A DNA stretch of 60,058 bases from an uncultured Bacilli bacterium (GTDB taxonomy: Bacteria > Bacillota_I > Bacilli_A > RF39 > UBA660): assembly GCA_947588895.1 (NCBI GenBank), contig CANQBF010000001.1:1-60058 (forward strand), given 5' to 3'. The notes beneath the pieces were generated by a model, which had not been told where the DNA came from, did not search any database, and saw nothing but the letters and a program-made list of their open reading frames with translations. Below are positions 17,075-52,709 of this stretch, one piece after another; positions within the stretch are counted from its first letter, which is position 1, and each line of letters begins with the position of its first letter. The position numbers and the translations under genes were made by a program.

Positions 17075-18439
17075 ATGGAAACGCACGAATTTTTCAAACA
17101 ATTTTTAACATTAATTAGTGAAAAAGTAAGTTCGGGCTCTTATTCGGTTTGGTTTAGTAATTTAAAAATATTACAAATAACTGATAAAGAAATTATTATT
17201 CAAGTTCCACTTCAAGCTCACAAAACAATGTTAAAACAACAATATATGGATATTATAGATGATGTTACTATTTCACTTTTAGGTAAAGAATATGAATATA
17301 TATTTTTAACTGAAGATGAAGCGAATGATAGTGATATACTTCATAACAAAAAAAATGAAGAAACAAATATAACTAAAGAAAAAGAACAAGAATGGGAAAC
17401 AAACTTAGATCCTTCAATGAATTTTGATAATTTTATTATTGGAGAATCTAATAGGTTAGCTTTTGTTGCAGCGATGGATGTTGCTCAATCTCCATGTACA
17501 ATTAATAATCCCTTATTTATATATGGAAGAAGTGGCATTGGTAAAACCCATTTAATGTATGCAATAGGTAATTATATTCATGAACATTCTGATAAAAAGG
17601 TTTTATATACAACTAGTAATGATTTTAGAGATGATTATGTTGAAATTTCGAAAAAAGAAAAAGGTAAAGAAGTATTAGAATACGCTAATAATTTTAAAAA
17701 TAAATATCGAAATGTTGATGTACTTATAATTGATGATATTCAGTTTTTAGTAGGAAATGAGGGAACACAACAAGAATTTTTCCATACTTTTGAAGCATTA
17801 CATAAAGCTAATAAACAAATAATTATATCAAGTGATAGAAGTCCTGATGATTTAAAGAAAATCGAAGATAGACTTAGAAGTAGATTTACAATGGGCCTAC
17901 CTGTTGATATTTATCCACCTGATTTCACACTTAGATGTGATATCATAAAGCAACATTTAGAAAATACTAGTATTAAAAATAAAGTTAATAAAGATGTTAT
18001 TGAATATATTGCTAATGCTTGTCCAAATGATATAAGACATATTATTGGTACAATAAGAAGATTACTAGCTTATACAGCAATGATGCGACCTCAGGTAATT
18101 AATTTAGATTTTGCAGTTGAAGCTTTAAAAGACTATATAACTGTTAATATTTATCAAGAAAATACAATATCGCATATTCAAAAAGTAGTTGCTGATTTTT
18201 TCAAGATAACAGTTGAAGATTTAAAAAGTAAAAAGAGAAGTAATAATATTGCTTGGCCAAGACATATAGCAATGTATTTATGTCGAGCTGAAACGGAGGA
18301 AAATCTAGCTAAAATCGGCTTTGAATTTGGTGGTAGAGACCATTCAACTGTCGTTGCAAGTTGTGATAAAATCAAAAGTGAGTTAATAACTAATGAAACT
18401 TTAAATGATACAATTAAAGAAATAAAAGCTAAGTTATAA
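17075..18439 (+). CDS. dnaA: Chromosomal replication initiator protein DnaA
   Basis: 454 aa with Walker A (GRSGIGKTHL), Walker B (LIIDDIQFL) and a C-terminal DNA-binding domain (GGRDHSTV). Confidence 0.97.
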   Translation: METHEFFKQFLTLISEKVSSGSYSVWFSNLKILQITDKEIIIQVPLQAHKTMLKQQYMDIIDDVTISLLGKEYEYIFLTEDEANDSDILHNKKNEETNITKEKEQEWETNLDPSMNFDNFIIGESNRLAFVAAMDVAQSPCTINNPLFIYGRSGIGKTHLMYAIGNYIHEHSDKKVLYTTSNDFRDDYVEISKKEKGKEVLEYANNFKNKYRNVDVLIIDDIQFLVGNEGTQQEFFHTFEALHKANKQIIISSDRSPDDLKKIEDRLRSRFTMGLPVDIYPPDFTLRCDIIKQHLENTSIKNKVNKDVIEYIANACPNDIRHIIGTIRRLLAYTAMMRPQVINLDFAVEALKDYITVNIYQENTISHIQKVVADFFKITVEDLKSKKRSNNIAWPRHIAMYLCRAETEENLAKIGFEFGGRDHSTVVASCDKIKSELITNETLNDTIKEIKAKL

Positions 18440-18564
18440 AAATGTTAATAATTATATAGTTTTCAACACTAATTTTTACTAGATTTTAAGGCAAATAAAA
18501 AATTATTAACATTTTCAACACTATAATAATAATCAATATAAAATATAAAGAAAGAAGGAAAGAT
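18440..18564. other. oriC, downstream DnaA-box pair (dnaA-dnaN spacer)
   Basis: TTTTCAACA occurs at 18460..18468 and 18512..18520. This gives the bipartite oriC layout typical of Firmicutes. Confidence 0.7.
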
Positions 18565-19683
18565 ATGAAATTTGTTATTGATAAAAATATTTTATTAGAA
18601 GCTCTTACAAATGTTTCTAGAGCTATTGGAACAAGAACGACTATTCCTATATTAAATGGAATAAAAATGGATTTAACTTTAGATGGATTAAGTTTAATGG
18701 CTAGTGATTCAGAATTAACAATAAGAGAATTTATACCTGAAAAAGAAATAAAAAGTATAGAAAATCCAGGAAAAGTAATTATTCAAAGTAAATATATATT
18801 AGATATTATTAGAAAAATGCCTACTGATATAATATATTTTGAAATGGAAGAAGAAAATAAATTAAAAATATATACTGATAATAATAAGTTTGATTTAAAT
18901 TGTTATGATATCAATGATTATCCAAATATAACATTAGATGAAAGTAAAGAACCAATTACGATATCAGCTGAAATATTAAAAAATATTATAAATGAAACAT
19001 CATATGCTGTATCAACACAAGAAGTAAGACCACTTTTAACTGGTGTTAATTTAAAAATAATGGGAGATATATTAGAGTGTATTGCCACTGATTCTTATCG
19101 TCTTTCTAAAAAGAATATTAAATTAAATTCAATGATTAATAATGCAATTAATATTGTAATACCAGGAAAAAGTATAATAGAACTTGAAAAAATGCTTGAT
19201 AATGAAGATGATGTAATAATGCATATATTTACTAATAAAGTATTATTTAAATATCGAAATATTGAATTTCAAACTAATTTATTAAGTGGTACTTATCCAG
19301 ATACAAGTAATTTTATACCAAATGAATTTGCATATATGATTAATTTAGATTTAAAAGCATTTAATGATGCCGTAGATAGAGCTTCATTACTTGCTATAAA
19401 TAAAGATAAAAATTTTGTTAAAGTTATAATTAATAATAAAACTATGGTAATATCATCATCTTCAAGTGAAATAGGAACAACTGAAGAAAAATTAAATATT
19501 GAATGTAGTAATAAAGAAAAGTTAGAAATAGCATTTAGCTCTAGATATATGCTTGAAGCATTAAAAGTTATTAAAGAAGAAAGTATTTTATTGTTAATAA
19601 ATAGTGATGATAAACCTATTTTAATAAAACCAGTTAATGATGAATCATTAGTAGAGCTTATTTTACCAGTAAAAACATATTAA
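18565..19683 (+). CDS. dnaN: DNA polymerase III beta sliding clamp
   Basis: 372 aa with three-domain clamp pattern, immediately after dnaA. Confidence 0.95.
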   Translation: MKFVIDKNILLEALTNVSRAIGTRTTIPILNGIKMDLTLDGLSLMASDSELTIREFIPEKEIKSIENPGKVIIQSKYILDIIRKMPTDIIYFEMEEENKLKIYTDNNKFDLNCYDINDYPNITLDESKEPITISAEILKNIINETSYAVSTQEVRPLLTGVNLKIMGDILECIATDSYRLSKKNIKLNSMINNAINIVIPGKSIIELEKMLDNEDDVIMHIFTNKVLFKYRNIEFQTNLLSGTYPDTSNFIPNEFAYMINLDLKAFNDAVDRASLLAINKDKNFVKVIINNKTMVISSSSSEIGTTEEKLNIECSNKEKLEIAFSSRYMLEALKVIKEESILLLINSDDKPILIKPVNDESLVELILPVKTY

Positions 19684-19708
19684 GTTAGTGAAAAAACTAA
19701 CTTTTTTT
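19682..19708 (+). terminator. Intrinsic terminator after dnaN
   Basis: The hairpin AAGTTAGT-GAAAAA-ACTAACTT is followed by TTTTT. Confidence 0.7.
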
Positions 19709-19782
19709 AATTTTATAAGATAATTAGACAAAATTTTTAAGTTTAGTGTGCTATAGTAGACCATAAATTTTTGGAGGAAAGT

Positions 19783-20235
19783 ATGGAAAATTATATAATA
19801 AATGAAAATACTGTAGCAATTTTAAAAAAATATAATGAAATTATTATTTATAATGTTGATAAAGAAGAAGTTTTCAACACGAAAATTAAAAAAATTATTA
19901 ATACAAGTTGTTTAGTATATGGAAGTAATCTTTTAGGAAGAAAAGAATATGCTAAAAAATATTTAAATATTAAATATAAAGTACCAATTATAATATCTGA
20001 GAATAAAAATATTATTTTGTTACAAATAAATAATTTTCGGGATGAAGAATGTTTATGTATTGTGGGAAATAAAATATTAAATTATCAAGAAAAAGATAAT
20101 AAATTAATAATAAAATGTATAAATAATCAAGAATTTTCCACAAATATATCTAAGTATAGTTTTGAAAAAATACTTTTAAATTATTTAAAATTAAATAATT
20201 ATATTAATTATCAAAATAGTTTGAAATTTCTTTAA
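19783..20235 (+). CDS. ComK-family protein (competence transcription factor-like)
   Basis: By eye it matches ComK hallmarks: NTVAIL.., IINTSCLVYGSNLLGRK (compare IVDRSCRFFGSSYAGRK), KVPIIISENKNIILL, and C-x-I after a short gap. I set the start at the ATG at 19783, 5 nt after GGAGG; the ORF track uses the TTG at 19771. Confidence 0.65.
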   Translation: MENYIINENTVAILKKYNEIIIYNVDKEEVFNTKIKKIINTSCLVYGSNLLGRKEYAKKYLNIKYKVPIIISENKNIILLQINNFRDEECLCIVGNKILNYQEKDNKLIIKCINNQEFSTNISKYSFEKILLNYLKLNNYINYQNSLKFL

Positions 20236-20325
20236 AATATGTCTATTTTGTGATATAATTGTAAATAGGTATGGGAGTATTAACTTACCTCATTTGTTTA
20301 ATATTGACTAAAAGAAGGCTATATT

Positions 20326-21411
20326 ATGAAATTAAACTCATTAAAACTCTCTAATTTTAGAAATTATGAAAGACTAGAATTAAAATTTAATGATGCTCTT
20401 AATATTATTTATGGTTCAAATGGTGTTGGAAAAACTAATTTAGTGGAAGCAATTTATTTACTTGCTATAACTAAGTCATTTCGAACTAATAATGATAAAA
20501 ATTTAATAAAAGATGGGGAAGTTAGTACCAAAATAGAAGGTGAGGTCGAAACAAACACAACTAATGATTATGAAGTTGTAATAAATAAAGAAGGAAAAAA
20601 AGTAAAAATAGATAAAGATATAATATCAAAATTAAGCGATTATATAACTAATATTAATGTTGTTGTATTACAACCTAATGAACAAGTATTATTTGAAGAA
20701 AGTCCATCAGAAAGAAGAAAATTATTAAATGTTGAAATTTGTGGTATTAAAAAAGAATATTTAATATATCTAAATAATTATAATAAATTACTTAAACAAA
20801 GAAATTTTTATTTAAGAGAGTTATATATTAATGGTAATGCTAGTTATGATTATTTAGATATTATTACTAAAAAATTAATAGATTATGGTAAGAAAATATA
20901 TGATTATCGTAAAAAGTTTATTGATGATATTAATGAATATATAAGTATAAAATATAAAAATGTATTTGAAAATGGAGAATTAGCTATTAAATATAATTCT
21001 GATTATAATAAAAGTGAAGATGAAATATTTAATAATTATAAAAAAAATTATAATAAAGAAATAACAATAGGTAAGACATTATATGGAATACATCATGATG
21101 ATATTGTTTTTTTACTAGATAACAAAGATATAAATAATAGAGGAAGTAATGGACAAAAGAAGAATGCTATATTTGCTTTTAAATTAGCTTTAATTGAGTT
21201 AATATACAATGAAAAAGGTAGTTATCCAATCCTTATATTAGATGATTTATTTAGTGCATTAGATAATAAAAAAATAACTAATATATTTAAATTATTATCT
21301 GATAATATACAAACATTTATTACAACAACTGATTTAGATAAAATTGATAATACATTAATAGAAAAAGCCAAAGTATTAAAAGTAATAGATAGTGGTGTTT
21401 TGGAGGAATAA
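20326..21411 (+). CDS. recF: DNA replication and repair protein RecF
   Basis: 361 aa with Walker A (GSNGVGKTNLVEA) and Walker B (ILILDD), in the conserved dnaN-recF-gyrB position. Confidence 0.93.
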   Translation: MKLNSLKLSNFRNYERLELKFNDALNIIYGSNGVGKTNLVEAIYLLAITKSFRTNNDKNLIKDGEVSTKIEGEVETNTTNDYEVVINKEGKKVKIDKDIISKLSDYITNINVVVLQPNEQVLFEESPSERRKLLNVEICGIKKEYLIYLNNYNKLLKQRNFYLRELYINGNASYDYLDIITKKLIDYGKKIYDYRKKFIDDINEYISIKYKNVFENGELAIKYNSDYNKSEDEIFNNYKKNYNKEITIGKTLYGIHHDDIVFLLDNKDINNRGSNGQKKNAIFAFKLALIELIYNEKGSYPILILDDLFSALDNKKITNIFKLLSDNIQTFITTTDLDKIDNTLIEKAKVLKVIDSGVLEE

Positions 21412-21464
21412 AATGAATAAATTAAGTAATTTAGTAGTGAAAAATATAGAAGAAGGTGATAGGT

Positions 21465-23390
21465 ATGAATGAAAATAATATGCATTATAATGAAAATGAT
21501 ATTCAAGTTTTAGAGGGATTAGAAGCAGTTAGAAAAAGACCTGGTATGTATATTGGTACAACTGATGTAAAAGGACTTCATCATTTAGTTTGGGAAATTG
21601 TAGATAATGCCATTGATGAAGCTTTAGCAGGTTTTTGTAACCATATAGAAGTAGTTATTAATAAAGGTAATTCAATAACTGTAAAAGATAATGGACGAGG
21701 AATACCAGTAGGAATCCATCCTAAAACAGGAGTATCAACAGTTGAAACCGTTTATACCGTATTACATGCTGGTGGTAAATTTGGTGGAGGCGGATATAAA
21801 GTAAGTGGTGGACTTCATGGTGTTGGTGCATCAGTTGTTAATGCTTTATCTAAATGGGTTACTGTTACTGTTTATAAAGATGGTAAAATATATGAAACTA
21901 AGTTTGAAAATGGTGGCAAAACTGTTCAAAAATTAACTGAAATAGGAACATGTGAAGAAAATAGAACAGGTACAACAGTTTCATTTAAACCAGATCCTGA
22001 AATATTTGATACTGATATATACGATTATGAAACTTTAAAGGTAAGAATAAGAGAATTAGCATTTTTAAATAAAGGATTATCATTAACTATTCGTGATGAT
22101 AGAGATATGGAAGATACAACTGGGGAAACATTCTTATATGAAGGTGGTATTTCAGAATATGTTAAATTCTTAAATGTTAGTAAGACACCAATTCATGATG
22201 AAATTATTCATTTAGAAGGCGAAGAAGATGGGATATTCTTTGAAGTAGCAATGCAATATAATTCAGGTTATAATGATAGTATTTATTCATTTGTAAATAA
22301 TATTAATACACATGATGGTGGTACACATGAAGAAGGTGTTAGAAGAGCTCTTACAAGAGTAATTAATAATTATGCTAGAAAAGCTAATATATTAAAAGAA
22401 AAAGATGAATCTTTAACTGGAGATGATGTTAAAGAAGGTCTAACAATGATTATTTCGTGTAAACATCCTAATCCTCAATTTGAAGGTCAAACTAAAGGTA
22501 GATTAGGTAATAGTGAAGTAAGAAAACTTGCAGATAATGTATTCTCAGCTGGTTTTGAAAGATTCTTAATGGAAAATCCTAAAGAAGCAAGAATTATAAT
22601 TGAAAAAACAGTTAATGCTTCAGTAGCAAGAATTGCTGCCCGAAAAGCAAGAGAAAGCACTAGAAGAAAAGGCGATTTAGATGTCATTAATTTTGGTGGA
22701 AAGCTTGAAGATTGTAAAGAAAAAGACCCATCTGTTTGTGAGTTATTTATAGTCGAGGGAGATAGTGCTGGTGGTTCTGCTGTAAAAGGTAGAGATGCTA
22801 TGACACAAGCAATATTACCATTAAGAGGTAAAATATTAAATGTTGAAAAAGCTAGAGTTGATAGAGCATTATCTAATGAAGAAATAAGAACTATTATTAC
22901 AGCATTTGGTACTGGTATTGGTGATGCATTTGATTTAAGTAAACTTAGATATAATAAAATTATTATCATGACTGATGCCGATGTTGATGGTTCACATATT
23001 AGAGTATTATTATTAACATTATTTTATCGTTTCTTTAAACCTATTGTTGAAGCAGGACATGTATATGCTGCACAACCTCCGTTATTTTGTATTAAACATG
23101 GTAAAACAATAAAATATGTATTAAATGAAGAAGAAAGAGATACGTATATAGCGTCATTAAATCCTAATACAAAATATGATATATTTAGAATGAAAGGTTT
23201 AGGAGAAATGGATGCTGAAGAATTAAATGAAACAACTATGGATATTAATAAACGAATTCTTAGAAAAATAACTGTTGATGATGCCATTGCAGCTGATGAA
23301 GCATTTTCACTTTTAATGGGCGAGGAAGTAGAACCACGTCGTAAATTTATTGAAGAAAATGCTAAATATGTTGAAAATTTAGATATATAG
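21465..23390 (+). CDS. gyrB: DNA gyrase subunit B
   Basis: GHKL ATPase motifs ([29 protein letters not shown]) and Toprim motifs ([16 protein letters not shown]). The start is set at the ATG after GAAGGTGA. Confidence 0.97.
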
Positions 23391-23399
23391 GAGGGTTTT

Positions 23400-25904
23400 A
23401 TGGATCATAGTAGAGATAGATTAGAAGAAAATAACATTGTAAATGAAATAAAATCATCATTTATTGAATATTCAATGAGTGTTATTGTTTCAAGAGCATT
23501 ACCTGATTTAAGAGATGGTTTAAAGCCTGTTCATCGTAGAATTTTATGGTCAATGTATGAATCTGGTTATACTCCTGATAAACCTCATAAAAAGTCAGCT
23601 AGAATAGTTGGAGACGTTATGGGTAAATACCATCCACATGGTGATTCAAGTATATATGAAGCAATGGTTAGAATGGCACAAGATTTCAATTATCGATATA
23701 CGCTTGTTGATGGACATGGTAACTTTGGTAATATAGCTGGTTCTGGAGCTGCAGCAATGCGTTATACCGAATCAAGATTATCAAAAATGTCACTAGAATT
23801 ATTAAGAGATATTGGTAAAGATACAGTTAATTTTGTACCTAACTTTGATGAATCTGAAAGAGAACCAGAAATATTGCCATCAAGATTTCCAAATATTTTA
23901 GTAAATGGTACAATGGGTATTGCTGTAGGTATGGCAACAAATATTCCACCACATAATTTAGGTGAAGTTATTGATGGATGTGTGGCCTATATTGATAATG
24001 AAAATATTGATACTGAAGGATTAATGCAATATATTAAAGGACCTGATTTTCCAACTGGTGGTATTATTTTAGGTAATAGTGGAATAAAAAAAGCATATGA
24101 AACTGGAAGAGGTACTATTACTATTAGAAGTAAAGCTACTATTGAAGAAAAAAATGGTAAAAATTATATTATTGTTGATGAAGTTCCATATGGTGTTAAT
24201 GTATCAGAATTAAAGGCAAAAGTTGCTGAACTAGTACATAATAAAATAATTGATGGGATAGCAGATTATCATACTGATTTAAAAGATGGTGTAAAAATTA
24301 CAATAACATTAAAAAATAATGCCAATCCTCAAGTTGTACTTAATAATTTATATAAACATACACAATTTCAAACAACATATGGTATTATTTTCTTAATGAT
24401 TGATAATCAAGTACCTAGAACATTAGGATTAAGAGATATAATAGCTAAATATATAAATTATCAAGAAGAAGTTATTATAAGAAGAACTAAGTATGAATTA
24501 GATAAAGCAGAAAAAAGAGTTCATATTTTAGAGGGGTATAAAATAGCTTTAGATAATCTTGATGATTTTATTAAAATTATTAGAGAATCAGAAACTGATA
24601 TAATTGCTAAAGAAAAATTGATTAGTAAATATAGTTTAACTGAAATTCAAGCTGATAGTATCTTAGAATTAAAATTACGTCGTTTAACAGGCTTAGAAAG
24701 AGCTAAGATTGAAGAAGAATTAAAAGAATTATTAGCTAAGATAGAAGAATATAAAGCTATATTAGCATCAAGAGAGAAAATATTAGAAATTATCAAGAAT
24801 GAACTTCTAGAAATTAAAGAAAAATATGGAGATGACCGTCGTACCAAGATTGATATGACTGCAATTGAATATATTGAAGATGAATCTTTAATTCCAGAAG
24901 AAGATATAATGGTAATGCTTACAAATAAAGGATATATTAAGAGAACAAAAAATGATACTTTCAAAGTTCAAAATCGTGGCGGAGTTGGAATCAAGGGATT
25001 AACAACTAATGATGAAGACTATGTTGAACAATTAATTAATTTATCAACTCACGATTATATAATGTTCTTTACAAATAAAGGAAAAGTATATCGTTTAAAA
25101 GGATATGAAATACCAGAATTTAGTAGGCAATCTAAGGGTCTTCCAGTAATTAATTTATTACAAATTGAAAAAGACGAAAAAATTAATGCTGTAATTAAAG
25201 TTTCTAATGATGATGAAGCAAAATATTTAATGTTTGCGACAAAACAAGGTATTGTTAAGAAAACTGACATTAAAGAATTTGAAAATATAAGAACATCAGG
25301 TAAATTATGTATTAATTTAAAAGATGATGATGAATTAATTGCTGTTAAGAAGACTAATGGAAATAATATAATCTTACTTGGAAGCAGTAATGGTAGAATG
25401 GTTAAATTTGATGAAAATGAAATTAGAGCTATGGGTAGAACTGCAACGGGAGTAAGAGGAATTAATCTTGGCGATGGAACATGTATTTGTTGTGAAGTTG
25501 CAAAAGAAGAAGATATGTTGTTACTAGTTACTGAAAAAGGTTATGGTAAGAGAACTAAGATAAGTTATTTTAGACAAACTAGACGTGGAAGTAAAGGTGT
25601 TTTGGCACTTAATGTCACTGAAAAAAATGGTAATTTAATAGCTTCTAAGTTAGTGGAAGAAGATAAAGATGCTGTTTTAATGACTAATGTTGGTATAACA
25701 ATTAAATTACCAGTAGAACAAATTTCAATTTTAGGTCGTGTTACTCAAGGTTTAAGACTTATATCATTACGCGATAATCAAACAGTAGCTACAGTAAGTA
25801 TTGTAGATAAAGTAAATGATGAAGAAAATAGTGAAAAGCCTGATAATACTATTGAAAATAACAATTTAGAAAGCAATTTAGTTGAAAATAATGAAGAAAG
25901 TTGA
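23400..25904 (+). CDS. gyrA: DNA gyrase subunit A
   Basis: 834 aa with the catalytic region AAMRYTE, a QRDR-like [13 protein letters not shown] and C-terminal beta-pinwheel repeats. Confidence 0.97.
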
Positions 25905-26410: not shown

Positions 26411-26440
26411 TTGACAAAGAAAAAAGTAATATGATAACAT
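26411..26440 (+). promoter_or_regulatory. Sigma-A-type promoter for the SRP RNA
   Basis: TTGACA (26411..26416), an 18-nt spacer, then the extended -10 TGATAACAT (-10 hexamer at 26435..26440). The predicted TSS is near 26447. Confidence 0.5.
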
Positions 26441-26446
26441 TAATAT

Positions 26447-26527
26447 GCACAACAAATATATTGTAACCTGGTCAGAGTTGGAAGACAGCAGCCACATCAA
26501 TCCCTATTTGTGTGTGCTTTTTTTTAT
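26447..26527 (+). ncRNA. ffs: Small (4.5S-like) signal recognition particle RNA
   Basis: It contains the conserved SRP domain IV: CCUGGUCAG-AGUU-GGAA-GAC-AGCAGCC (compare E. coli GGUCAGGUCCGGAAGGAAGCAGCC). The closing helix pairs GCACAACAAAUA with UAUUUGUGUGUGC and is followed by a U-run. It sits next to tadA-dnaX, where scr is found in Bacillus. Confidence 0.75.
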
Positions 26528-26539
26528 AGGAGAAAAAAG

Positions 26540-38534: not shown

Positions 38535-38745
38535 ACTTAATTAACGGGGAATAAGTATTATAATTAGGAAATATTATAGAGAGTTAATGGTTGGTGGAAA
38601 TTAATATAGGAACTAATTAGGTATGGACTTAGGAGTTAAAGCGCATGATGAGCGTTATGCATTAAAGTGTATGATTAATTCATAAATAAAGGTGGTACCA
38701 CGGGTTATCTCGTCCTTTACCTTATTTATGAATTTTTATTTTTAG
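38535..38745 (+). promoter_or_regulatory. T-box riboswitch leader, probable Met (AUG) specifier
   Basis: The T-box sequence AAAGGTGGTACCACGGG lies at about 38687..38704. A terminator (TTCATAAATAAAGGT / ACCTTATTTATGAA followed by TTTTTATTTTT) competes with it. Stem I folds by hand as follows: base helix TAAGT/ACTTA; a specifier loop with AUUA on the 5-prime side and GGUAUGG on the 3-prime side, with AUG at 38623..38625; a 7-bp helix TAATTAG/CTAATTA; a GAGAG bulge (AG bay); and a distal loop GGUUGGUGGAA. Confidence 0.8.
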
Positions 38746-41808: not shown

Positions 41809-42291
41809 ATGAAAATTTTAGATAAAATAAAAAAGATTGAAGAAATAAAAGAAAAGTTATATGCAGTAAAAAATGAGATACTTAATCATTATGAAGAACT
41901 AAAAGAAGATTTTATTGAAGAATATATTGATGAGAAAAAATCGATTGTTGATAATAATATTAGTGTTGATATTTCTAATGAAGTCCTTGATAATTATGAT
42001 TATTTTTTAAATAGTTTTGATAAATGGGATTTTGAATTCGAGTTTAAAAAATTAACAAATGCTACCTTAAGTATTCCTTTAACCAAATTAAAGGATAGAA
42101 AAGCTTTAGAGGTACTTATTAATAAATTTTTAGTTAATAATGAATTAGGAATGATAACATTTTCTAGTATATCTTATAATGAAAATAAAAATTATAAATT
42201 AACTTTCATTGTTGATTTTAAACATAATATAAATAAAGAAGATATTTTAAAAGCATTAGATAATGAAAAAGCATTAGTTAGAGTAAAATAG
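41809..42291 (+). CDS. Hypothetical protein (160 aa)
   Basis: A long ORF with a good RBS (AAAGGTGGA) and its own promoter. I recognise no motif. Confidence 0.65.
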   Translation: MKILDKIKKIEEIKEKLYAVKNEILNHYEELKEDFIEEYIDEKKSIVDNNISVDISNEVLDNYDYFLNSFDKWDFEFEFKKLTNATLSIPLTKLKDRKALEVLINKFLVNNELGMITFSSISYNENKNYKLTFIVDFKHNINKEDILKALDNEKALVRVK

Positions 42292-42349: not shown

Positions 42350-42883
42350 ATGAAGTGGTATATTAATGTTTTTGTTAAAACTTTAATTATAATATTATTT
42401 ATTGTTATATCAAGTACATATGTTAATACTATTGAAAATAAAACTTTTAGTAATAATATAAATAAAAATATTAATTTATCAACAATGGCAATGAAATTAG
42501 ATGAATTTATTGAAAATGATATATATAGTGCTAAAGATACATATACTGGAGATTTAACTGGTTATGTTTATAATTGTCCTTTATGTGGTGGACATTTAGG
42601 TTGTATGTATAATTATGATATTACTGATGGTAAAAATACTTATCCTGATGAAACTTATGGAACAGTTAATATAGTCGCGTCATCATTAAATTTACCCTGT
42701 GGAACAATTGTTAGATTTGAAAACAAAAAAATATCAAATGAACCGGTTATAGCTATTGTTCTTGATCGGGGTGTTCGTGGTAATGCACTGGATTTCTTAA
42801 GTCCTGATTTAGATTATGCTTTAAATTTAGGAAGAAGTATTGTTACTTATGACATACTTAGAACTGGATGGGGTAATAAATAA
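42350..42883 (+). CDS. 3D-domain (RlpA/MltA-like double-psi beta-barrel) cell-wall protein, YabE-related
   Basis: 177 aa with an N-terminal TM helix or signal. The segment LTGYVYNCPLCGG...GTIVRFEN...AIVLDRG...LDF is typical of 3D domains, and the gene sits in the yabE slot between yabD and ksgA. Confidence 0.7.
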   Translation: MKWYINVFVKTLIIILFIVISSTYVNTIENKTFSNNINKNINLSTMAMKLDEFIENDIYSAKDTYTGDLTGYVYNCPLCGGHLGCMYNYDITDGKNTYPDETYGTVNIVASSLNLPCGTIVRFENKKISNEPVIAIVLDRGVRGNALDFLSPDLDYALNLGRSIVTYDILRTGWGNK

Positions 42884-43656: not shown

Positions 43657-43719
43657 GTATTTATAAAATTTCACAAAATCTTCACAATTCAATGTTAATT
43701 TTATAGTAGGAGGTACGTT

Positions 43720-44214
43720 ATGAAAGATGGAAGAAATATCATAATTGCGGCTTTATTAGTAGCAGTATTAACGATGTCTATTGGTTATGCAGCATTTGCA
43801 ACAACACTTAATATCAATGGTAATGCTGAAATTACAGGTACTTGGGATGTAAAAATTACTGGTATTGAAGCTACTAAAACAACTGGGGATGCTGATGGTG
43901 GCGAACCAACATTTACTAATACAAGTGCAAAGTTTGATGCTGAATTAACTAAACCAGGTGATTCAGTTGTTTATACTATTACTGTTCAAAATAATGGCTC
44001 AATTGATGCAACTTTGACTACTTTTCAACTAACACCACAAGTAGATGGTTCAGAAGCAATTAATTATGAATATACTGAGCCTGAAAAAAATTTAACAGCA
44101 GGTTCATCTACAACTTTTACAGTTACTGTAACATATGATTCTAGTGTTACTGAGATGCCAGATGTATTAACTAGATCTGCAACTGGAATAGTTGAATATT
44201 CACAAGCTGAATAA
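43720..44214 (+). CDS. Secreted beta-sandwich protein with a SipW-type (TasA/camelysin-like) signal peptide
   Basis: 164 aa. The signal is IIIAALLVAVLTMSIGYA|AFATTLNINGNAEI; compare TasA GGGTWA|AFND. The mature part is T/S/G-rich with alternating beta-strand patterns (PGDSVVYTITVQNNGSIDATL). It has a strong RBS (AGGAGG). Confidence 0.7.
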   Translation: MKDGRNIIIAALLVAVLTMSIGYAAFATTLNINGNAEITGTWDVKITGIEATKTTGDADGGEPTFTNTSAKFDAELTKPGDSVVYTITVQNNGSIDATLTTFQLTPQVDGSEAINYEYTEPEKNLTAGSSTTFTVTVTYDSSVTEMPDVLTRSATGIVEYSQAE

Positions 44215-44253
44215 ATTTTGCATTAATAAATAATTTAAAGTGGGTGTTTTATT

Positions 44254-45156
44254 ATGAGAAGGAAAACAATTAGAAAAATCAAAAGAGTCTTTAATTATAA
44301 AACGTTGTTTACCTTTTTATTAATTATAATACCTGCTTTTTTATTTATAATGACTGGTTATGGATTATTTTCAACTAGACAAAATATAAATGGCACTGCA
44401 AAAATAAAGAATAATACAGGAAAAGATGAAGAAGATATAAATGATATTTGTCATATAGAAATAAATTGGGATATTGCTTCTAGTTGGTCAAATAATTATA
44501 TAGTTGATATAACTTTGACTAATCATTCAAATGATGATATTCATACTTGGGTTATTAAATTTCCCAATGTTCCAAATGTTGAAATCACATCACAACATGG
44601 TACTGTAACTGAATCAAATAATCATAAATATATTCATGCTTTAGATTGGAATGGTAAAATTTTACTTGAAGAAAGTTTAACTTTTCAAGCACAATTTACT
44701 ACTTCTGAAGATATCACGAATATTTTAAATAATATCGTAATAACCAATTGTGGTCGTGTAACAACTGATGAAGATGATGAAATAGGTTCAGGAAATGCAA
44801 AATTGGAACTTCTATATGGTGAGGTTGAACTTGACGCTAGTTTAACTCTTATTGCAGGTGGCGATTGGGGTGGTCAAGTTAATCGATATACCTTGACAAT
44901 TACTAATAATACTGAATTTGATATAGTTGAATGGCGTGGAATAGTTTATTTTGGAAAGAAATCAACTAATCCATCGCAATGTACGATATATGAAGCAACG
45001 TTAACTGATAAAGCTGATACACACTTTTATTTTGAAGATAATGGTGGAAATAATACGATAAAGGCTGGAGAATCATTGGAAATGAATTTAGTTATATATA
45101 CTAATGATGCCAAATATTTTCCTCAAGTTACAGTTGCTGGATTGAAAGCTGATTAA
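44254..45156 (+). CDS. Secreted or anchored protein with a related signal (TGYG|LFSTRQNINGTAKI) and two CBM2-like beta-sandwich repeats
   Basis: 300 aa. It has two repeats of the pattern W..(N/G)..V.(I/L)T(L/I)TN.....I..W.(V/I).F. Confidence 0.65.
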   Translation: MRRKTIRKIKRVFNYKTLFTFLLIIIPAFLFIMTGYGLFSTRQNINGTAKIKNNTGKDEEDINDICHIEINWDIASSWSNNYIVDITLTNHSNDDIHTWVIKFPNVPNVEITSQHGTVTESNNHKYIHALDWNGKILLEESLTFQAQFTTSEDITNILNNIVITNCGRVTTDEDDEIGSGNAKLELLYGEVELDASLTLIAGGDWGGQVNRYTLTITNNTEFDIVEWRGIVYFGKKSTNPSQCTIYEATLTDKADTHFYFEDNGGNNTIKAGESLEMNLVIYTNDAKYFPQVTVAGLKAD

Positions 45157-45157
45157 G

Positions 45158-46324
45158 ATGAATTTAAATAATATTAAAGAAAAAAAATTATTAATACTAA
45201 TTATTAGTTATTTAATTATAACTATTCTTTTATCATTTAACTATTATCATTTATATATAAATACAATTAATCCTTTATTTTTTTTGATAATTATATTTTA
45301 TTCTATATATGAATTAAAAAAGAGTTATATACGTTTTAAAGATAGTAATAATTATAATTTTAAAATGTTTATTATCGTTATTATATATTTGGTATTCTTA
45401 TTTAATTTAGGATTTATTATTGGATATGCTAGAAGCCCTTACTCTCATACTATAAGAGGTATTATAAAAAATATTTATCAATTAGTTATACCGATAATAG
45501 GTATTGAATTAATAAGAGGAATATTAATAGTAAAAAATAGAAATAATAAAGGTTTAATTTTTCTAATTACTTTGATTCTAATTTTATTAGAAGTAAATTA
45601 TTGGGCATTATTTTCAAATATAAATAATCCTGAACGTTTTTTTCAATATTTTTGTTCTACAATTTTACCACTGATTTTTTCAAGTTCAGTTTATTCATAT
45701 TTGTGTTATCATACATCATATAAATTACCATTAATTTTTCGGATTTTTGAAATAGCTTTTCAATTATTATTACCAATATATCCTAATATAAATTGGTTTG
45801 TTACGGGTTCAATTGGTATAATCGTTCCAATAATAATATTCTTTTTATTTAAATATCGTTATTTTAAAATTAAAAACAATGATAGAAAAATGAAAAGTAA
45901 TAAATTTGGAATGGCTTTTTCAATAATTTTTGCTATCTTTTTAGTAGCGTTTATGTTAGGGTTTTTTAAGTATGAAATGGTAGCAATTCTTTCTAATAGT
46001 ATGTATCCTTCATATGAACGTGGAGATATAGTTATTTATGAAAAAATTAATGATTTAGAATTGCAAAATATACCAAATAATTCTATAATTGTATATACTA
46101 TTGGAAATCAAATAATTGCACATCGAATTGTAGATGTTGTTGAAGAAAATGGCACAATAAAATATAGGACAAAGGGTGATTACAATAACGCTCCAGATTC
46201 TAGATTAGTTTCTTTGGAGCAAATAAAAGGCGTATATGTTTTACATATAAAATATTTAGGATTTCCAGCAGTATGGTTAAATGAATTTTTCAATAAAGAA
46301 GAAGCTGTTGTGGAAACAAAATAA
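45158..46324 (+). CDS. Fusion of a polytopic membrane domain (about 7-8 TM) with a SipW/archaeal-ER-type signal peptidase I (S26B)
   Basis: 388 aa. The C-terminal roughly 115 aa carry S26B motifs: LSNSMYP (Ser nucleophile), IIAHRIV (His) and RTKGDYNNAPD. The N-terminal roughly 265 aa are hydrophobic helices with no motif I recognise. Confidence 0.8.
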   Translation: MNLNNIKEKKLLILIISYLIITILLSFNYYHLYINTINPLFFLIIIFYSIYELKKSYIRFKDSNNYNFKMFIIVIIYLVFLFNLGFIIGYARSPYSHTIRGIIKNIYQLVIPIIGIELIRGILIVKNRNNKGLIFLITLILILLEVNYWALFSNINNPERFFQYFCSTILPLIFSSSVYSYLCYHTSYKLPLIFRIFEIAFQLLLPIYPNINWFVTGSIGIIVPIIIFFLFKYRYFKIKNNDRKMKSNKFGMAFSIIFAIFLVAFMLGFFKYEMVAILSNSMYPSYERGDIVIYEKINDLELQNIPNNSIIVYTIGNQIIAHRIVDVVEENGTIKYRTKGDYNNAPDSRLVSLEQIKGVYVLHIKYLGFPAVWLNEFFNKEEAVVETK

Positions 46325-46342
46325 AAAGGAAGGTAGGCTAAT

Positions 46343-47413
46343 ATGAAGAAGAAAGGAGAAAACAAAAAAATTAAATTTGTAGTTTTTTTGGTACCTTTTT
46401 TCATTATTGTTGGTCTATTTTTAATTTATTTCAATTTACCAAAAAAAGAAATTGATAAACCAAATATGGCTATTTTATTTAGTTATACTGCTAATAAAAA
46501 AGACCATTATTTTGTACATTTAAAACCTAATCCATTTTATAAAGAAGAAGTTCTTTCTGAAGGATTAGAATATGCATCTAGTGCAATAGATAAGGTTGTA
46601 GTAAATTTTGATTATAATATAAAAAGTTCTAGTAAAGCAAACTTTAATTATACTTATGATATTAAAGCAGAATTAACAGCTAAACCAAAAAACATTGAAG
46701 GCAGTAGTGATATATGGAAAAGAGATTTTGCACTTCAAAACCAAAGAACTGATCAATCATTAAATGTTGATAGTTATTCATTAAATGAAGAGGCAGAAAT
46801 AGATTATAGTTATTATGCTGATTTAGTAAGAAATTATGAATTAGATTATGGTTTAGCTATTAATGCTGTTTTAAAAGTTAAATTTAATATTGCTACAACT
46901 GTAACATTTGATAATCAATCTGAAATATATAATGATGTGATTGAATTGGATATACCAATAAACAATACAGTAACTAAATTTAGTAAAAATTATGAAGCTA
47001 ATAAAATTAAGTACATTTATGAGCAACCTAAAAATATAGTAAATGATGATAAAACTCCAAATTACTTCTTGTTAAGTATAGGAATTTCATTAGTAGTTTT
47101 AAGTATTGCATTCCTAATTTATTATTATAGTAATACAACAATTAATTATAAACAAAAATATCATAAAAATATTAATTATGTTTTAAAAGAATATGCTGAA
47201 TTAATTGTAACTGTTACAAATAAACCAAATTTAGGTAAGTTGAAAAAAATGCATTTGAATATATTAGATGATTTAATAGATGTAGCAGAACAACAACATC
47301 AAAATATTATTCACTGGGAGAAAGAAAAAGATAAAGAAAGTGATTTATATGTAATAACTAATGATTATGTATACATATTTACAGTTACTTCCAAAGAGTT
47401 AAGAGAAAAATAA
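46343..47413 (+). CDS. Bitopic membrane protein (TM, about 220-aa ectodomain, TM, about 90-aa cytoplasmic tail); possibly DUF5305-like
   Basis: 356 aa with TM1 FVVFLVPFFIIVGLFLIYF and TM2 YFLLSIGISLVVLSIAFLIYYY. It is the last gene of the cluster and is followed by a strong terminator. Confidence 0.7.
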   Translation: MKKKGENKKIKFVVFLVPFFIIVGLFLIYFNLPKKEIDKPNMAILFSYTANKKDHYFVHLKPNPFYKEEVLSEGLEYASSAIDKVVVNFDYNIKSSSKANFNYTYDIKAELTAKPKNIEGSSDIWKRDFALQNQRTDQSLNVDSYSLNEEAEIDYSYYADLVRNYELDYGLAINAVLKVKFNIATTVTFDNQSEIYNDVIELDIPINNTVTKFSKNYEANKIKYIYEQPKNIVNDDKTPNYFLLSIGISLVVLSIAFLIYYYSNTTINYKQKYHKNINYVLKEYAELIVTVTNKPNLGKLKKMHLNILDDLIDVAEQQHQNIIHWEKEKDKESDLYVITNDYVYIFTVTSKELREK

Positions 47414-47416
47414 TTG

Positions 47417-47459
47417 ACAAATAAGTTAAATAAGTTGATTTTACTTATTTGTTTTTTTT
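47417..47459 (+). terminator. Intrinsic terminator closing the SipW cluster
   Basis: ACAAATAAGT pairs with ACTTATTTGT and is followed by a T8 run. Confidence 0.75.
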
Positions 47460-47511
47460 ATGTAGAATTCTATTCTTTTTTTATTGGCATATAATTTAGT
47501 GGTGATTTATT

Positions 47512-49958: not shown

Positions 49959-52709
49959 ATGGTCGGAGAAATATATAAATTATTAGTTACTTTATTTTTA
50001 AGGATAGATAGTATAGTATACGGAATTATAAGTGTTTTATATCAAGTATTTATTGCTGTTGCTTCGTTAAAAATGTTTAATGATGGAATATATAGTAGAA
50101 TTGAAAATATGGTATATATGATTGTGGGAGTTTTTGCCTTATTTTTAATTGCTTATAATTTATTAAAACACATGATTGATGCAGATTTATCTAAAAGTGC
50201 TACTGATGTAAAAAAGGTAGTTCTTAATTTAGTTACATCTATGTTTATGATAATGTTAATTCCTATAACTTTTAATTTATTATTTTCAGTACAAAATGCT
50301 ATTTTAAAACAAGACTTAATAGGAAAATTATTTCAGCCATATACAACGGATTTTGAAAATAGTGAGCATTTAAGTAGTTGTCTCGATTCTAGAGTTATTG
50401 TTTATCAAGAAGATAGCGATAGTTATGTACAAACTGATGATTCACAAGCAGTTAATGATGTAAAATTAAAGTGTTATGGTAATTTAGCTGCATTACAAAT
50501 GTTTCAAGGGTTCTTTTATCCTGCAATTGTAAATGATCCAGAAAATATTCAAAATTATCAAAATGGTACTAGTTTAACAAATACATTAAATGAAGCTGCG
50601 GCATCTGTTCATCCTGAAGATTCGACAGCATTAGAAAAACTTGGAAGTGCTGTTAAATGGTTATTTGAACCATTACCAATGAAAGTTTTTGATATTGTAA
50701 ACGCGTTTAGAAATTCTGATGAAAATGATAATTCTGATTTTTCATTGGCGGATGCATATGATGTTGCTGTTGCTTCTGGTGATTTTGCTATATTTGAGCT
50801 GTTTACTGAAAATGTAGAAAGCGGTGAAATTAAATATACATTCTTAGCGTCAACGATTGCTGGTGGATTTGCTTGTTATGTATTATTATTATATTGTTTA
50901 GATGTTGCTGTAAGAGCAGTAAAACTTGCGTTTTATCAAATGATTGCACCATTCCCAATAATGATGAGAGTAGTACCTAAAAAAGGAACAGAAATATTTA
51001 ATAATTGGCTCAAATGTGTAAGTACAACTTATTTTGAAATATTTTCAAGGCTTGCTATACTATATTTTGGAATGTTTTTTGTATCAAATATATTTACTTT
51101 AATGGGTGAAGGATTAAGTAGTAAGAATATTGGTTATAATTTGATGTCTGGTAGTTTATTTGGTGTAGGTGTTTGGCTTTTAGTGAAAGCTGTAATAATT
51201 TTAGGAATTTTTGCTTTTATGAAAAAACTTCCAGAATTATTAAAACAAATTGTACCATCTTCTGATAAATTCTCATTAAAATTATGGGATCATTTAAAAG
51301 ATTCATTTGCTATACCTGCAGCAATTGGCGGATTTGCTGGTGGAATGGTTGCTAGTGGTGGTAATCCATTAGCAGGAATTAGAGCAGCTGGTAAAGGTTG
51401 GAAAGATAGTTCATTAGCTGGTATTGGTGCTGAACATAAAAGACGGCTTGCAAAACTAGAAGCGGATAAAAAATCTAGAGCTGCTGGTCAATCAACTACT
51501 GAAAGAATGGCACATCGAATGTTAGAAAGAGGAAGAGGATATTTAGGACTTGATTCAGGTGTAGATGAACTTAATAGAAAGATAGATAGAGGCGAAGGGT
51601 TAAGAAAAGGTACAACAATTACTGCAATTAATGATTCAATGGATAATATACAATTATTGGATAGCGAATCTCATCATATTGGTACTATTAATCGTGGAGA
51701 TACTAGAATTTATGATAAAGATACTAAAACTAATGCTGAAACTAGTCTTGAAATGTGGAAAAGAAGACAATCTGATATTAAAGAAATTGCTAATAAATAT
51801 GATGAAACTGCTTCAGGTATGAGAGCAGTTGCTAGTAGTGCTAAAGCTTTTGATGATGTTATGGAATCCAAATTATTAAAAGGAGATTCAAAATATACAT
51901 TGCAATACTCAATGTTTAAAGATAATCAAGGAAAATATCATGTTGTTTATGGTGTAGATGAAAATGATTTCAAAAATAATTTAAGAGCAAAATTAAATGA
52001 GTTAGGTTATGCAGATGGAGACCAAAAAGATGCCTTAATTAACTCTCTATCAGAGTCAAGTTCAATAGGTAATTTAAGTACATTCCAAAATTATACGGCT
52101 GGTTTCTTAAGAAAGCATGATGGTGAAGATTTAGGTAATTCATATGATGAAATTAACCAATCTGGTACAAAAGCTATGGATGCATTAAAGAAACTTGCAG
52201 AAAGAGAATTAATATTAGGTGATGACAATGGTACTGGTAGAATGATTAAAGCTGGTCAAGGTAGTCTAAATACATTAATAAATAATATAGTTGCTGGTAA
52301 ATTATTAGAACTTCAAGCAACAAGAGATGTTGATGGTACTATTACTAGCGCTACTTTAGATAGATTAAGTAATATTCAAGTGGGTTCTTATACTTTAGAT
52401 TTAACTGCGCCTGGTTTTGAATCAAGATTACAAGCTGCTCTAAGGAATGGACAATTCACAGCTGATGAATTAATTTCAGCTTTGAAAAATTTAGAAACTG
52501 CCGCTACTAATGTTGAAACTGAAAAGACTAGTGATGCTGGTAAGATTAATCAAAGATTAAATGAAGCAGATTCTCAAGTTAAAGCTCATACAAGATTCAT
52601 TGAAACTGGTAATAAAGCTATTGATATTGAAAAAAGAGGAAATGTATATACTGCACAACAAGCTACCACGGATTATATTAATAAAACAAAAGGCGGTAAT
52701 AGTCAATGA
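49959..52709 (+). CDS. Large polytopic membrane protein (916 aa) with an extracytoplasmic loop of about 180 aa and an alpha-helical C-terminal domain of about 450 aa; function unknown
   Basis: It has a GGAGGTG RBS and about 8 predicted TM helices. The helix-rich segment VAVRAVKLAFYQMIAPFPIMM is followed by a Gly-rich TM helix (IGGFAGGMVASGG). The soluble parts are visibly less K/N/I-biased than neighbouring genes. Confidence 0.8.
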   Translation: MVGEIYKLLVTLFLRIDSIVYGIISVLYQVFIAVASLKMFNDGIYSRIENMVYMIVGVFALFLIAYNLLKHMIDADLSKSATDVKKVVLNLVTSMFMIMLIPITFNLLFSVQNAILKQDLIGKLFQPYTTDFENSEHLSSCLDSRVIVYQEDSDSYVQTDDSQAVNDVKLKCYGNLAALQMFQGFFYPAIVNDPENIQNYQNGTSLTNTLNEAAASVHPEDSTALEKLGSAVKWLFEPLPMKVFDIVNAFRNSDENDNSDFSLADAYDVAVASGDFAIFELFTENVESGEIKYTFLASTIAGGFACYVLLLYCLDVAVRAVKLAFYQMIAPFPIMMRVVPKKGTEIFNNWLKCVSTTYFEIFSRLAILYFGMFFVSNIFTLMGEGLSSKNIGYNLMSGSLFGVGVWLLVKAVIILGIFAFMKKLPELLKQIVPSSDKFSLKLWDHLKDSFAIPAAIGGFAGGMVASGGNPLAGIRAAGKGWKDSSLAGIGAEHKRRLAKLEADKKSRAAGQSTTERMAHRMLERGRGYLGLDSGVDELNRKIDRGEGLRKGTTITAINDSMDNIQLLDSESHHIGTINRGDTRIYDKDTKTNAETSLEMWKRRQSDIKEIANKYDETASGMRAVASSAKAFDDVMESKLLKGDSKYTLQYSMFKDNQGKYHVVYGVDENDFKNNLRAKLNELGYADGDQKDALINSLSESSSIGNLSTFQNYTAGFLRKHDGEDLGNSYDEINQSGTKAMDALKKLAERELILGDDNGTGRMIKAGQGSLNTLINNIVAGKLLELQATRDVDGTITSATLDRLSNIQVGSYTLDLTAPGFESRLQAALRNGQFTADELISALKNLETAATNVETEKTSDAGKINQRLNEADSQVKAHTRFIETGNKAIDIEKRGNVYTAQQATTDYINKTKGGNSQ

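Follow-up and report, generated by a model that had tools for sequence, protein, structure and literature searches.

The question raised by the locus described here is what is built by four genes that lie between rsmA and yabG in an uncultured Bacilli bacterium (assembly GCA_947588895.1), within the first 60,058 nucleotides of contig CANQBF010000001.1, a stretch hereafter called the window. The original prediction, made by reading the DNA alone, was that a dedicated signal peptidase processes two substrates with special N-termini and that these could form a fibre. This proposal is partly supported by the co-occurrence of the genes, by fold and profile links and by published work on related loci (bioRxiv 10.64898/2026.01.04.697558; PMC11821415). 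The cassette, organised as an AbpX-type locus with its own peptidase, is likely to be an operon complete in itself, from which an extracellular protein fibre of the TasA superfamily is made; its local peculiarity is a donor-strand accessory protein of the carbohydrate-binding module family 2 (CBM2) type.

The gene 3 product is a signal peptidase I of the endoplasmic reticulum (ER)/archaeal type (S26B), and not a plain SipW. Over residues 253-375 only, it scores 76.5 bits with TIGR02228, the model for archaeal-type signal peptidase I (cut-off 51.85), and its closest solved relatives are the human SEC11C and SEC11A (~1e-12), with which it has the SxSM, HR and GDNN motifs in common. Residues S281, H322, D341 and D347 are invariant in four orthologues, and the catalytic set is Ser/His/Asp in place of Ser/Lys, as in the MEROPS definition of S26B. 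Thus, the archaeal-type assignment first given to this gene stands, while the name SipW does not: the SipW equivalog NF046067 gives 68.6 bits versus 190, and the peptidase fold is preceded by a polytopic part of ~250 residues, with about nine to ten hydrophobic helices over residues 1-279 by hydropathy, about nine of them ahead of the anchor helix of the peptidase. The gene 4 product matches the Pfam family DUF5305 (PF17231; E 1.9e-16, 60.6 bits versus 29) with full profile coverage, as the proposed search with this model was meant to reveal. It had been taken for a bitopic membrane protein; two hydrophobic helices are found instead (residues 7-34 and 238-264), with an extracytoplasmic domain between them and a cytoplasmic C-terminal domain. 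It is a putative partner of the gene 3 peptidase, a role that published work has proposed.

The long peptidase was used to scan 185,579 species genomes, which gave 80 loci; open reading frames (ORFs) were called in them and searched with hidden Markov models (HMMs) of the four window genes and their relatives. Among 42 distinct loci with a long-form peptidase, a subunit gene of the gene 1 type is present in 36, a DUF5305 gene in 38 and both in 33, versus three, two and two, respectively, among 40 distinct loci with a short or partial peptidase. The CBM2-type gene is found in only eight of the long-form loci and in none of the short-form ones; the recurrent set is that of subunit, long peptidase and DUF5305 protein. 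In the long-form loci, the subunit gene lies on the same strand at a distance of up to 6 kb, the DUF5305 gene is immediately 3' of the peptidase gene and the order is constant; two to four subunit paralogues occur in seven of them. A contig end is located within 6 kb of the peptidase gene in six of the nine long-form loci devoid of one partner (e.g., L009, L012, L014, L036), so that the absent partner may lie off the contig, and the three short-form loci with a subunit gene resemble fragmented long forms. All the full-length relatives come from metagenome-assembled genomes of uncultured gut Bacillota (rabbit, human, ruminant). In January 2026, AbpX-like loci of Bacillota that encode a subunit together with a signal peptidase I of ten helices and a DUF5305 protein were first described, on bioinformatic grounds (bioRxiv 10.64898/2026.01.04.697558); the cassette belongs to this widespread type, so that, contrary to what had been supposed, it is of a kind that is no longer undescribed. 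An archaeal locus (L053), considered as a comparator for AbpX, was discarded; it has a short-form peptidase and no related subunit.

The gene 1 product would be the fibre subunit. It consists of a signal anchor (residues 1-24), a candidate donor strand (A25-I38) and an acidic beta-sandwich core; the mature protein (residues 25-164) has a pI of 4.05 and contains 14.3% Asp plus Glu. Searches with a word index found 53 homologues of the same size, and an AlphaFold2 (AF2) monomer model built on 28 of them, with a predicted local distance difference test score (pLDDT) of 88, displays a signal helix at 2-25, unstructured residues at 26-43 and then a six-strand sandwich. In the PDB, Foldseek places the TasA fibre 8aur_A first (prob 1.0, E 1.4e-3); further fold matches include chaperone-usher pilins and the Sulfolobus 0406 thread. 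When the gene 1 family profile was compared with the PDB sequences, the sole matches with E<0.1 were AbpX 9sj2_C (0.0016) and 9rhp_A (0.013).

A link to TasA is seen also at the profile level. A TasA/camelysin set was obtained from the genes located beside sipW in Bacillaceae loci and confirmed as Peptidase_M73 (E 3.6e-83); hhalign of the gene 1 family with this verified alignment gave 86% probability and E 4.9e-6, pairing GYAAF with GTFAYF and LTKPGDSVVYTITVQNNGSID with NLKPGDVIYREFELINDGSLD, and covering also the KPGD...N.G.lD block. The direct match of gene 1 to the Pfam Peptidase_M73 model is below the cut-off (E 0.076). The early impression that the substrates do not resemble TasA beyond the signal was therefore mistaken as regards gene 1, which, judging from profiles and model, is a remote member of the TasA superfamily. 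The family is large: when 1.84 billion representative proteins were searched exhaustively with its HMM, 868 clusters reached E<=1e-30 and 6,394 reached E<=1e-10. In many metagenomic relatives the N-terminal subunit domain (residues 1-167) is fused to BspA-type leucine-rich repeats, DUF285, DUF6273 or Flg_new, giving adhesin-like proteins, or to HINT. Among the metagenomic relatives (P0069-P0211) are, in addition, giant proteins in which the core sandwich is repeated up to 31 times.

The two exported proteins have in common only their N-terminal segment, which is the part aligned by BLASTP (E 2e-4); the shared motif first noticed in these two sequences is confirmed, and it is kept in 45 relatives of gene 1 and eight of gene 2. 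The subunit consensus (n=45) is M-[AS]-[VI]-G-Y-[AS]-A-[FL]-[AS]-x-x-L-x-[IL]-N-G-T-A-x-I-x-G-x-W-[DN], and the CBM2-type variant (n=8) is [TS]-G-Y-[AGS]-[LF]-[LF]-x-x-x-L-x-[LI]-[NS]-G-x-[AT]-x-I. A glycine at -3 and Ala or Gly at -1 fit type I cleavage after GY[AGS], and on this sequence basis gene 1 is predicted to be cleaved at GYA24|A25F; TasA is cut in TWA|AFND, in agreement with the hhalign pairing. If the cut is at A24|A25, position 2 of the mature protein is F26 in gene 1 (among the 45 relatives, 28 have F there and 16 have L), and position 4 of the donor strand is T28, with a family consensus of Q/T/S, that is, not acidic. About 14 residues past the cut are conserved, and alternate positions are hydrophobic (F26, L30, I32, A36 and I38 in gene 1; F39, I45, A49 and I51 in gene 2). 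This alternating and conserved segment is unpaired in the monomer model, as would be expected of a donor strand like those solved for TasA and AbpX, and we infer that the motif combines a cleavage context with a donor strand.

Gene 2 encodes a K/R-rich N-terminus, a membrane helix, the sequence TGYG37|L38F, the segment LFSTRQNINGTAKI, an acidic linker and two CBM2-type beta-sandwich modules (~66-166 and 185-300). Two stretches match the Pfam family CBM_2 (E 1.9e-9, 38.2 bits versus a cut-off of 24), in accordance with the two CBM2-like repeats of the original prediction. The family profile retrieves solved CBM2 structures (3ndy_E, 5e-9; 6bt9, 1.5e-8; 1exg, 3.5e-6), and the modules matched are those of EngD, ChiA74, Cex and ChiC (5e-9 to 7e-5). 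The flanking cysteine pair of CBM2 is kept (Cys66/Cys166). In Cex, W17, W54 and W72 form the planar aromatic triad by which CBM2a modules bind cellulose or chitin; W17 and W72 align to W78 and W132 of gene 2 and W54 to Q114 by manual count, and the ligand is not predictable thereby. No pilin-type domain was detected in the gene 2 product. Foldseek matches of its AF2 model were generic tandem sandwiches (integrin, transglutaminase) and were discarded. Orthologues of gene 2 were taken from the locus analysis, word-index searches having given almost none, and they hold the same position in eight loci. The second module (window 44800-45156) also matches the archaeal FlaF 4p94, an S-layer-binding sandwich, at E 0.037, which is below significance.

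A further locus, L081:7235-11387, contains a subunit, long peptidase and DUF5305 cassette located after divIC and followed by a 442-aa protein with a SVGYASINS.. N-terminus and a C-terminal CBM49/CBM_2 module; it is a second, independent pairing of such a cassette with a CBM2-class domain. Its NCBI label ("Candidatus Scybalousia", under Bacteroidales) conflicts with the sporulation genes of the locus and was not used. Recurrent CBM-bearing proteins with the same N-terminal motif, such as that of L081, and the recognisable ligand-binding modules of gene 2 would suit an arrangement in which gene 2 is the functional product, a membrane-anchored or released glycan binder, and gene 1 a chaperone-like or minor partner. 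This arrangement is very improbable: the CBM2-type gene is present in 8/42 loci versus 36/42 for the gene 1 type, the latter sometimes in two to four copies, and gene 1 is the first of the operon and has a consensus ribosome-binding site.

The evidence on the single genes can be joined in a model of fibre assembly. The gene 1 and gene 2 products would be exported by Sec with a signal anchor that looks uncleaved, and then cut by the gene 3 peptidase after G-Y-(A/G), probably with the help of gene 4; the sites cut would be A24|A25 for gene 1 and G37|L38 for gene 2. The cut would free an amphipathic N-terminal strand, AFATTLNINGNAEI in gene 1 and the LFSTRQNINGTAKI segment in gene 2. By donor-strand complementation, the strand of one gene 1 subunit would insert into the open beta-sandwich of the one that follows it, and a non-covalent polymer would result. 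As the gene 2 product would have a strand to donate but lacks a pilin-type domain that could receive one, it could sit at one end of the fibre only, as a TapA-like nucleator or cap, and its CBM2 modules may tie that end to a polysaccharide, either of the own cell wall or of an external glycan. Gene 2 is thus, by analogy, a putative TapA-like nucleator, anchor or adhesin, and the statement of the original prediction that there is no TapA-like gene, correct in that no TapA homologue is present, is probably wrong in terms of function, since gene 2 follows the TapA logic. A more specific version of the model is conceivable, if doubtful: the fibre may be a sortase-independent adhesion pilus of reduced-genome gut Bacillota, the CBM2 end of which binds dietary plant or fungal polysaccharide (cellulose, xylan, chitin), and the ten-helix domain together with DUF5305 may do more than process the substrates, acting in the membrane as a platform for assembly, the Gram-positive equivalent of an usher.

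It could also be that no fibre is made, and that the cassette produces two non-polymerising surface or secreted proteins, one Ig-like or DUF11-type and the other carbohydrate-binding, with a specialised peptidase for their unusual signal anchors. The best Pfam matches of gene 1 are indeed generic sandwich families, namely DUF7507 (CLIPPER_2 in newer Pfam), CARDB and DUF11, all at or below the cut-offs; its profile matches giant multi-repeat surface proteins as well, its fold matches are weak, and CBM2 modules are typical of secreted glycan-binding proteins. A pair of non-polymerising proteins is nevertheless unlikely. It does not fit with a conserved post-cut segment that has the form of an alternating hydrophobic strand and is unpaired in the monomer model, nor with a top fold match that is TasA in its fibre state and with PDB sequence matches whose only significant ones are to a fibre protein. 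Moreover, all the studied systems that combine a subunit with a dedicated S26-family peptidase (TasA, Tafi and AbpX) make donor-strand filaments, and two of them also have DUF5305.

Several observations weigh against a TasA-type fibre. The template modelling (TM) score of gene 1 with 8aur_A is only 0.41, which is weak in absolute terms, AbpX is matched by the gene 1 family only marginally (E 0.0016), sandwiches of the DUF11/CARDB type are found also in non-polymerising surface proteins, and the AF2 model of gene 2 is poor (pLDDT 57.8, from a seven-sequence alignment). The curated models for TasA, SipW, TapA and TIGR04088 are all below cut-off or silent for the cassette proteins: TasA NF046066 gives 15.2 bits versus 450, TapA TIGR04087 has no match, and the proposed check with TIGR04088, the SipW-cognate signal, had a negative outcome, with no match for the N-termini of genes 1 and 2 at E<=10 versus 43.3 bits (19 required) for a control TasA-like protein. 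The control TasA-like and TapA-like proteins do pass the curated models. Finally, position 4 of the donor strand is acidic in the AbpX clade and T, Q or S here, and of the AbpX calcium ligands (D18, D46, D48, E52 and E142), D18 aligns to D43 of gene 1, while D46, D48 and E52 align to T64, T66 and A70, in a weak alignment that makes these pairs provisional. With these replacements, calcium-triggered assembly is not indicated.

The location of the cassette bears on when it might be expressed. The four ORFs are tightly packed on one strand, and both the ORFs and the flanking genes first read from the DNA were confirmed (Table 1): the 5' flank is RrnaAD/rsmA (E 1.2e-61) and the 3' flank is the YabG peptidase U57 (E 5.4e-89), beyond which lie Veg, SpoVG and YabP. 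In at least eight related genomes rsmA directly adjoins yabG, so that the cassette is a lineage-specific insertion, as had been proposed by comparison with Bacillus. The window holds also dnaA, dnaN, recF, gyrB and gyrA, which places the cassette near the replication origin, and its GC content of 0.239 indicates a very AT-rich genome.

Table 1. Features of the cassette and of its borders in the window.
Feature	Position	Strand	Description
Gene 1	43720-44214	+	ORF, 164 aa; putative major fibre subunit
Gene 2	44254-45156	+	ORF, 300 aa; accessory, putative nucleator, anchor or adhesin
Gene 3	45158-46324	+	ORF, 388 aa; long-form S26B (ER/archaeal-type) signal peptidase I
Gene 4	46343-47413	+	ORF, 356 aa; DUF5305, putative peptidase partner
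TTCACAA, two copies 11 bp apart	43670..43687	+	in the 63-bp spacer between rsmA and gene 1
AGGAGG ribosome-binding site	43708..43713	+	6 nt 5' of the gene 1 ATG; read from sequence
Intrinsic terminator	47417..47461	+	AT-rich hairpin ACAAATAAGT...ACTTATTTGT, then T8; inverted repeat I23; RNAfold

The neighbourhood suggested a spore-surface appendage or a spore-coat fibre expressed in sporulation, which would explain the position among yabG, veg, spoVG and yabP/Q. The sporulation-linked neighbours are real, a second lineage has the cassette between spoVIF and spoIVA, and no sigma-70-type promoter was called upstream of it in the window. A spore role has, however, no support beyond the neighbourhood and appears quite improbable. 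The rsmA-yabG region is an ordinary conserved origin-proximal block, and the position of the cassette varies among relatives, being found also beside LytR/CSD/VanZ and an ABC transporter, between an H+-PPase (proton pyrophosphatase) and a cation ATPase, and after divIC. A near-consensus sigma-70 promoter is present at a fixed distance in 14 of 34 distinct upstream regions of relatives versus 2.6 expected, which points to vegetative expression, and no sporulation-sigma motif was identified.

As to its borders, the cassette had been described as bounded by terminators, and this is true of the 3' side only. There, the hairpin 47417-47452 with its U run (dG -12.1, RNAfold) is a plausible terminator; the consensus terminator scan requires GC-rich stems and misses this AT-rich hairpin, which was found by folding instead. 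In the 63-bp spacer between rsmA and gene 1, neither the scan nor folding yielded anything convincing as a terminator, so that read-through from rsmA is possible. The promoter scan called no + strand promoter in this spacer and left the window without a clear one. The two TTCACAA copies noted there are present; their reading as a response-regulator site was rejected, the heptamer being not enriched (10 found versus 14.2 expected) and absent upstream of every other related locus examined, and they may be weak -35-like hexamers. No RNA element was found by Rfam within or beside the cassette, and its flanks have no repeats that would mark a mobile element, the direct and inverted matches there being AT-rich and of low identity only.

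The consensus ribosome-binding site reported before gene 1 is present. Gene 1 is also richer in GC than the window, as first stated (0.333 versus 0.239); its GC content at third codon positions (GC3, 0.091) is like that of the neighbouring genes, and the reading of the excess as a mark of high expression or of foreign origin was rejected on this ground. The excess is confined to codon positions 1 and 2 and is due to the Thr/Ala/Gly-rich composition of the protein, not to codon choice. Two minus-strand ORFs, 46180-46404 (74 aa) and 46871-47026 (51 aa), overlap genes 3 and 4 and are probably chance ORFs in AT-rich DNA.

Other features of the region were recorded. In the related genomes with loci L072:5630-10439 and L071:6456-9851 (also in L058, L073, L077, L079 and L080), rsmA and yabG are adjacent and another cassette lies between a 3D-domain gene and rsmA; it encodes a SipW-type peptidase of the short form (210-260 aa), two membrane proteins and two or three small secreted ones whose N-termini read ..SFA[AM]Y... 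The origin-proximal neighbourhood looks like a hot spot for SipW-type cassettes. In the window, 160- and 177-aa ORFs (41809-42291 and 42350-42883) lie between tatD and rsmA and have no Pfam match at E<=0.001; homologues of the 177-aa ORF occupy the same position in relatives. A 916-aa ORF (49959-52709), located directly after a divIC-like gene, is hydrophobic in its N-terminal half and polar in its long C-terminal half; it, too, gave no Pfam match at E<=0.001. The replication-origin gene set spans 17075-25904, and a signal recognition particle (SRP) RNA and a T-box leader are found at 26439-26528 and 38538-38720, respectively; the T-box leader is upstream of a 206-aa ORF and of a 518-aa ORF, the latter tRNA synthetase-like by its N-terminus (unverified).

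Donor-strand fibres of the TasA type form the protein scaffold of biofilms in Bacillus and, as recently shown, in several archaea. The same machinery would now be found in uncultured gut Bacillota of very high AT content, as a compact set of four genes that could be transferred as a whole to a tractable host. The subunit family, in spite of its size (868 clusters at E<=1e-30), is essentially unannotated, and a tested example would give a name to thousands of hypothetical proteins, as well as a first handle on the function of the ten-helix peptidase and DUF5305 and on anchoring or targeting by carbohydrate modules. The adhesion pilus, if true, would represent a previously unrecognised route by which gut Bacillota attach to fibre particles.

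Among the known systems are the Gram-negative chaperone-usher pili (Fim, Pap, CFA/I), with which the likeness is in the assembly principle inferred here, an N-terminal strand completing the Ig-like fold of a neighbour. The cassette, in contrast, has no chaperone, usher or outer membrane and no sequence relationship to these pili, and its processing is of the ER/archaeal type. The haloarchaeal Tafi system (TafA/E pilins, TafD, and TafG with DUF5305) is also a donor-strand pilus locus with a dedicated S26-family peptidase, a conserved DUF5305 partner and variable tip or adhesin proteins; deletion of its co-encoded TafD peptidase abolished both pilin processing and pili. Unlike the cassette, which has Sec-like signal anchors and no twin arginines in gene 1, Tafi pilins use signals for twin-arginine translocation (Tat); TafD has four helices, and the Tafi locus includes the regulator TafB, which is absent here.

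With tapA-sipW-tasA of B. subtilis, the cassette shares a dedicated S26B peptidase encoded between or beside its substrates, a cleavage context, predicted in the cassette, of a small residue, an aromatic residue and A | A-F, a candidate donor strand at the N-terminus, and the KPGD...N.G.lD block in the sandwich of the major subunit. A second substrate with a donor-like N-terminus and no pilin-type domain is present in both, gene 2 and TapA, respectively. According to Roske et al. (PMC10151520), TasA receives the N-terminus of TapA, and TapA, the fold of which is already complete, is unlikely to be in the filament beyond initiation. On the other hand, gene 1 is ~100 residues shorter than TasA, gene 3 is extended by a polytopic part of ~250 residues, the locus includes a DUF5305 partner, and gene 2 is of the CBM2 and not of the TapA type, with no TapA homologue; by these sequence features the cassette is not a tapA-sipW-tasA operon in the strict sense.

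The closest comparison is with the AbpX-like loci, i.e., Pyrodictium abyssi AbpX and its archaeal and Bacillota homologues. These have a small acidic subunit (pI ~4, ~15% D/E) with an aromatic residue at mature position 2 and, as in gene 1, an N-terminal strand of amphipathic character; a signal peptidase I of the TIGR02228 type, with about ten helices, adjoined by a two-helix DUF5305 protein; and a variable accessory that carries a donor strand and an anchoring or tip module. In its acidic subunit, peptidase, DUF5305 partner and putative donor-strand accessory, the cassette agrees with this type at each point. In the Bacillota AbpX loci, proteins with S-layer homology (SLH) domains or LPXTG motifs serve as anchors or tips and are predicted to join the fibre by strand donation (bioRxiv 10.64898/2026.01.04.697558); in the cassette, tandem CBM2-type modules take the place of the SLH or LPXTG anchors, and the hosts are tiny-genome, very AT-rich, uncultured gut Bacillota. 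Gene 1, by its sequence, falls outside the calcium-responsive AbpX clade in its published definition. The cassette is thus best filed under the recently described locus type of the TasA superfamily that has a long signal peptidase and DUF5305.

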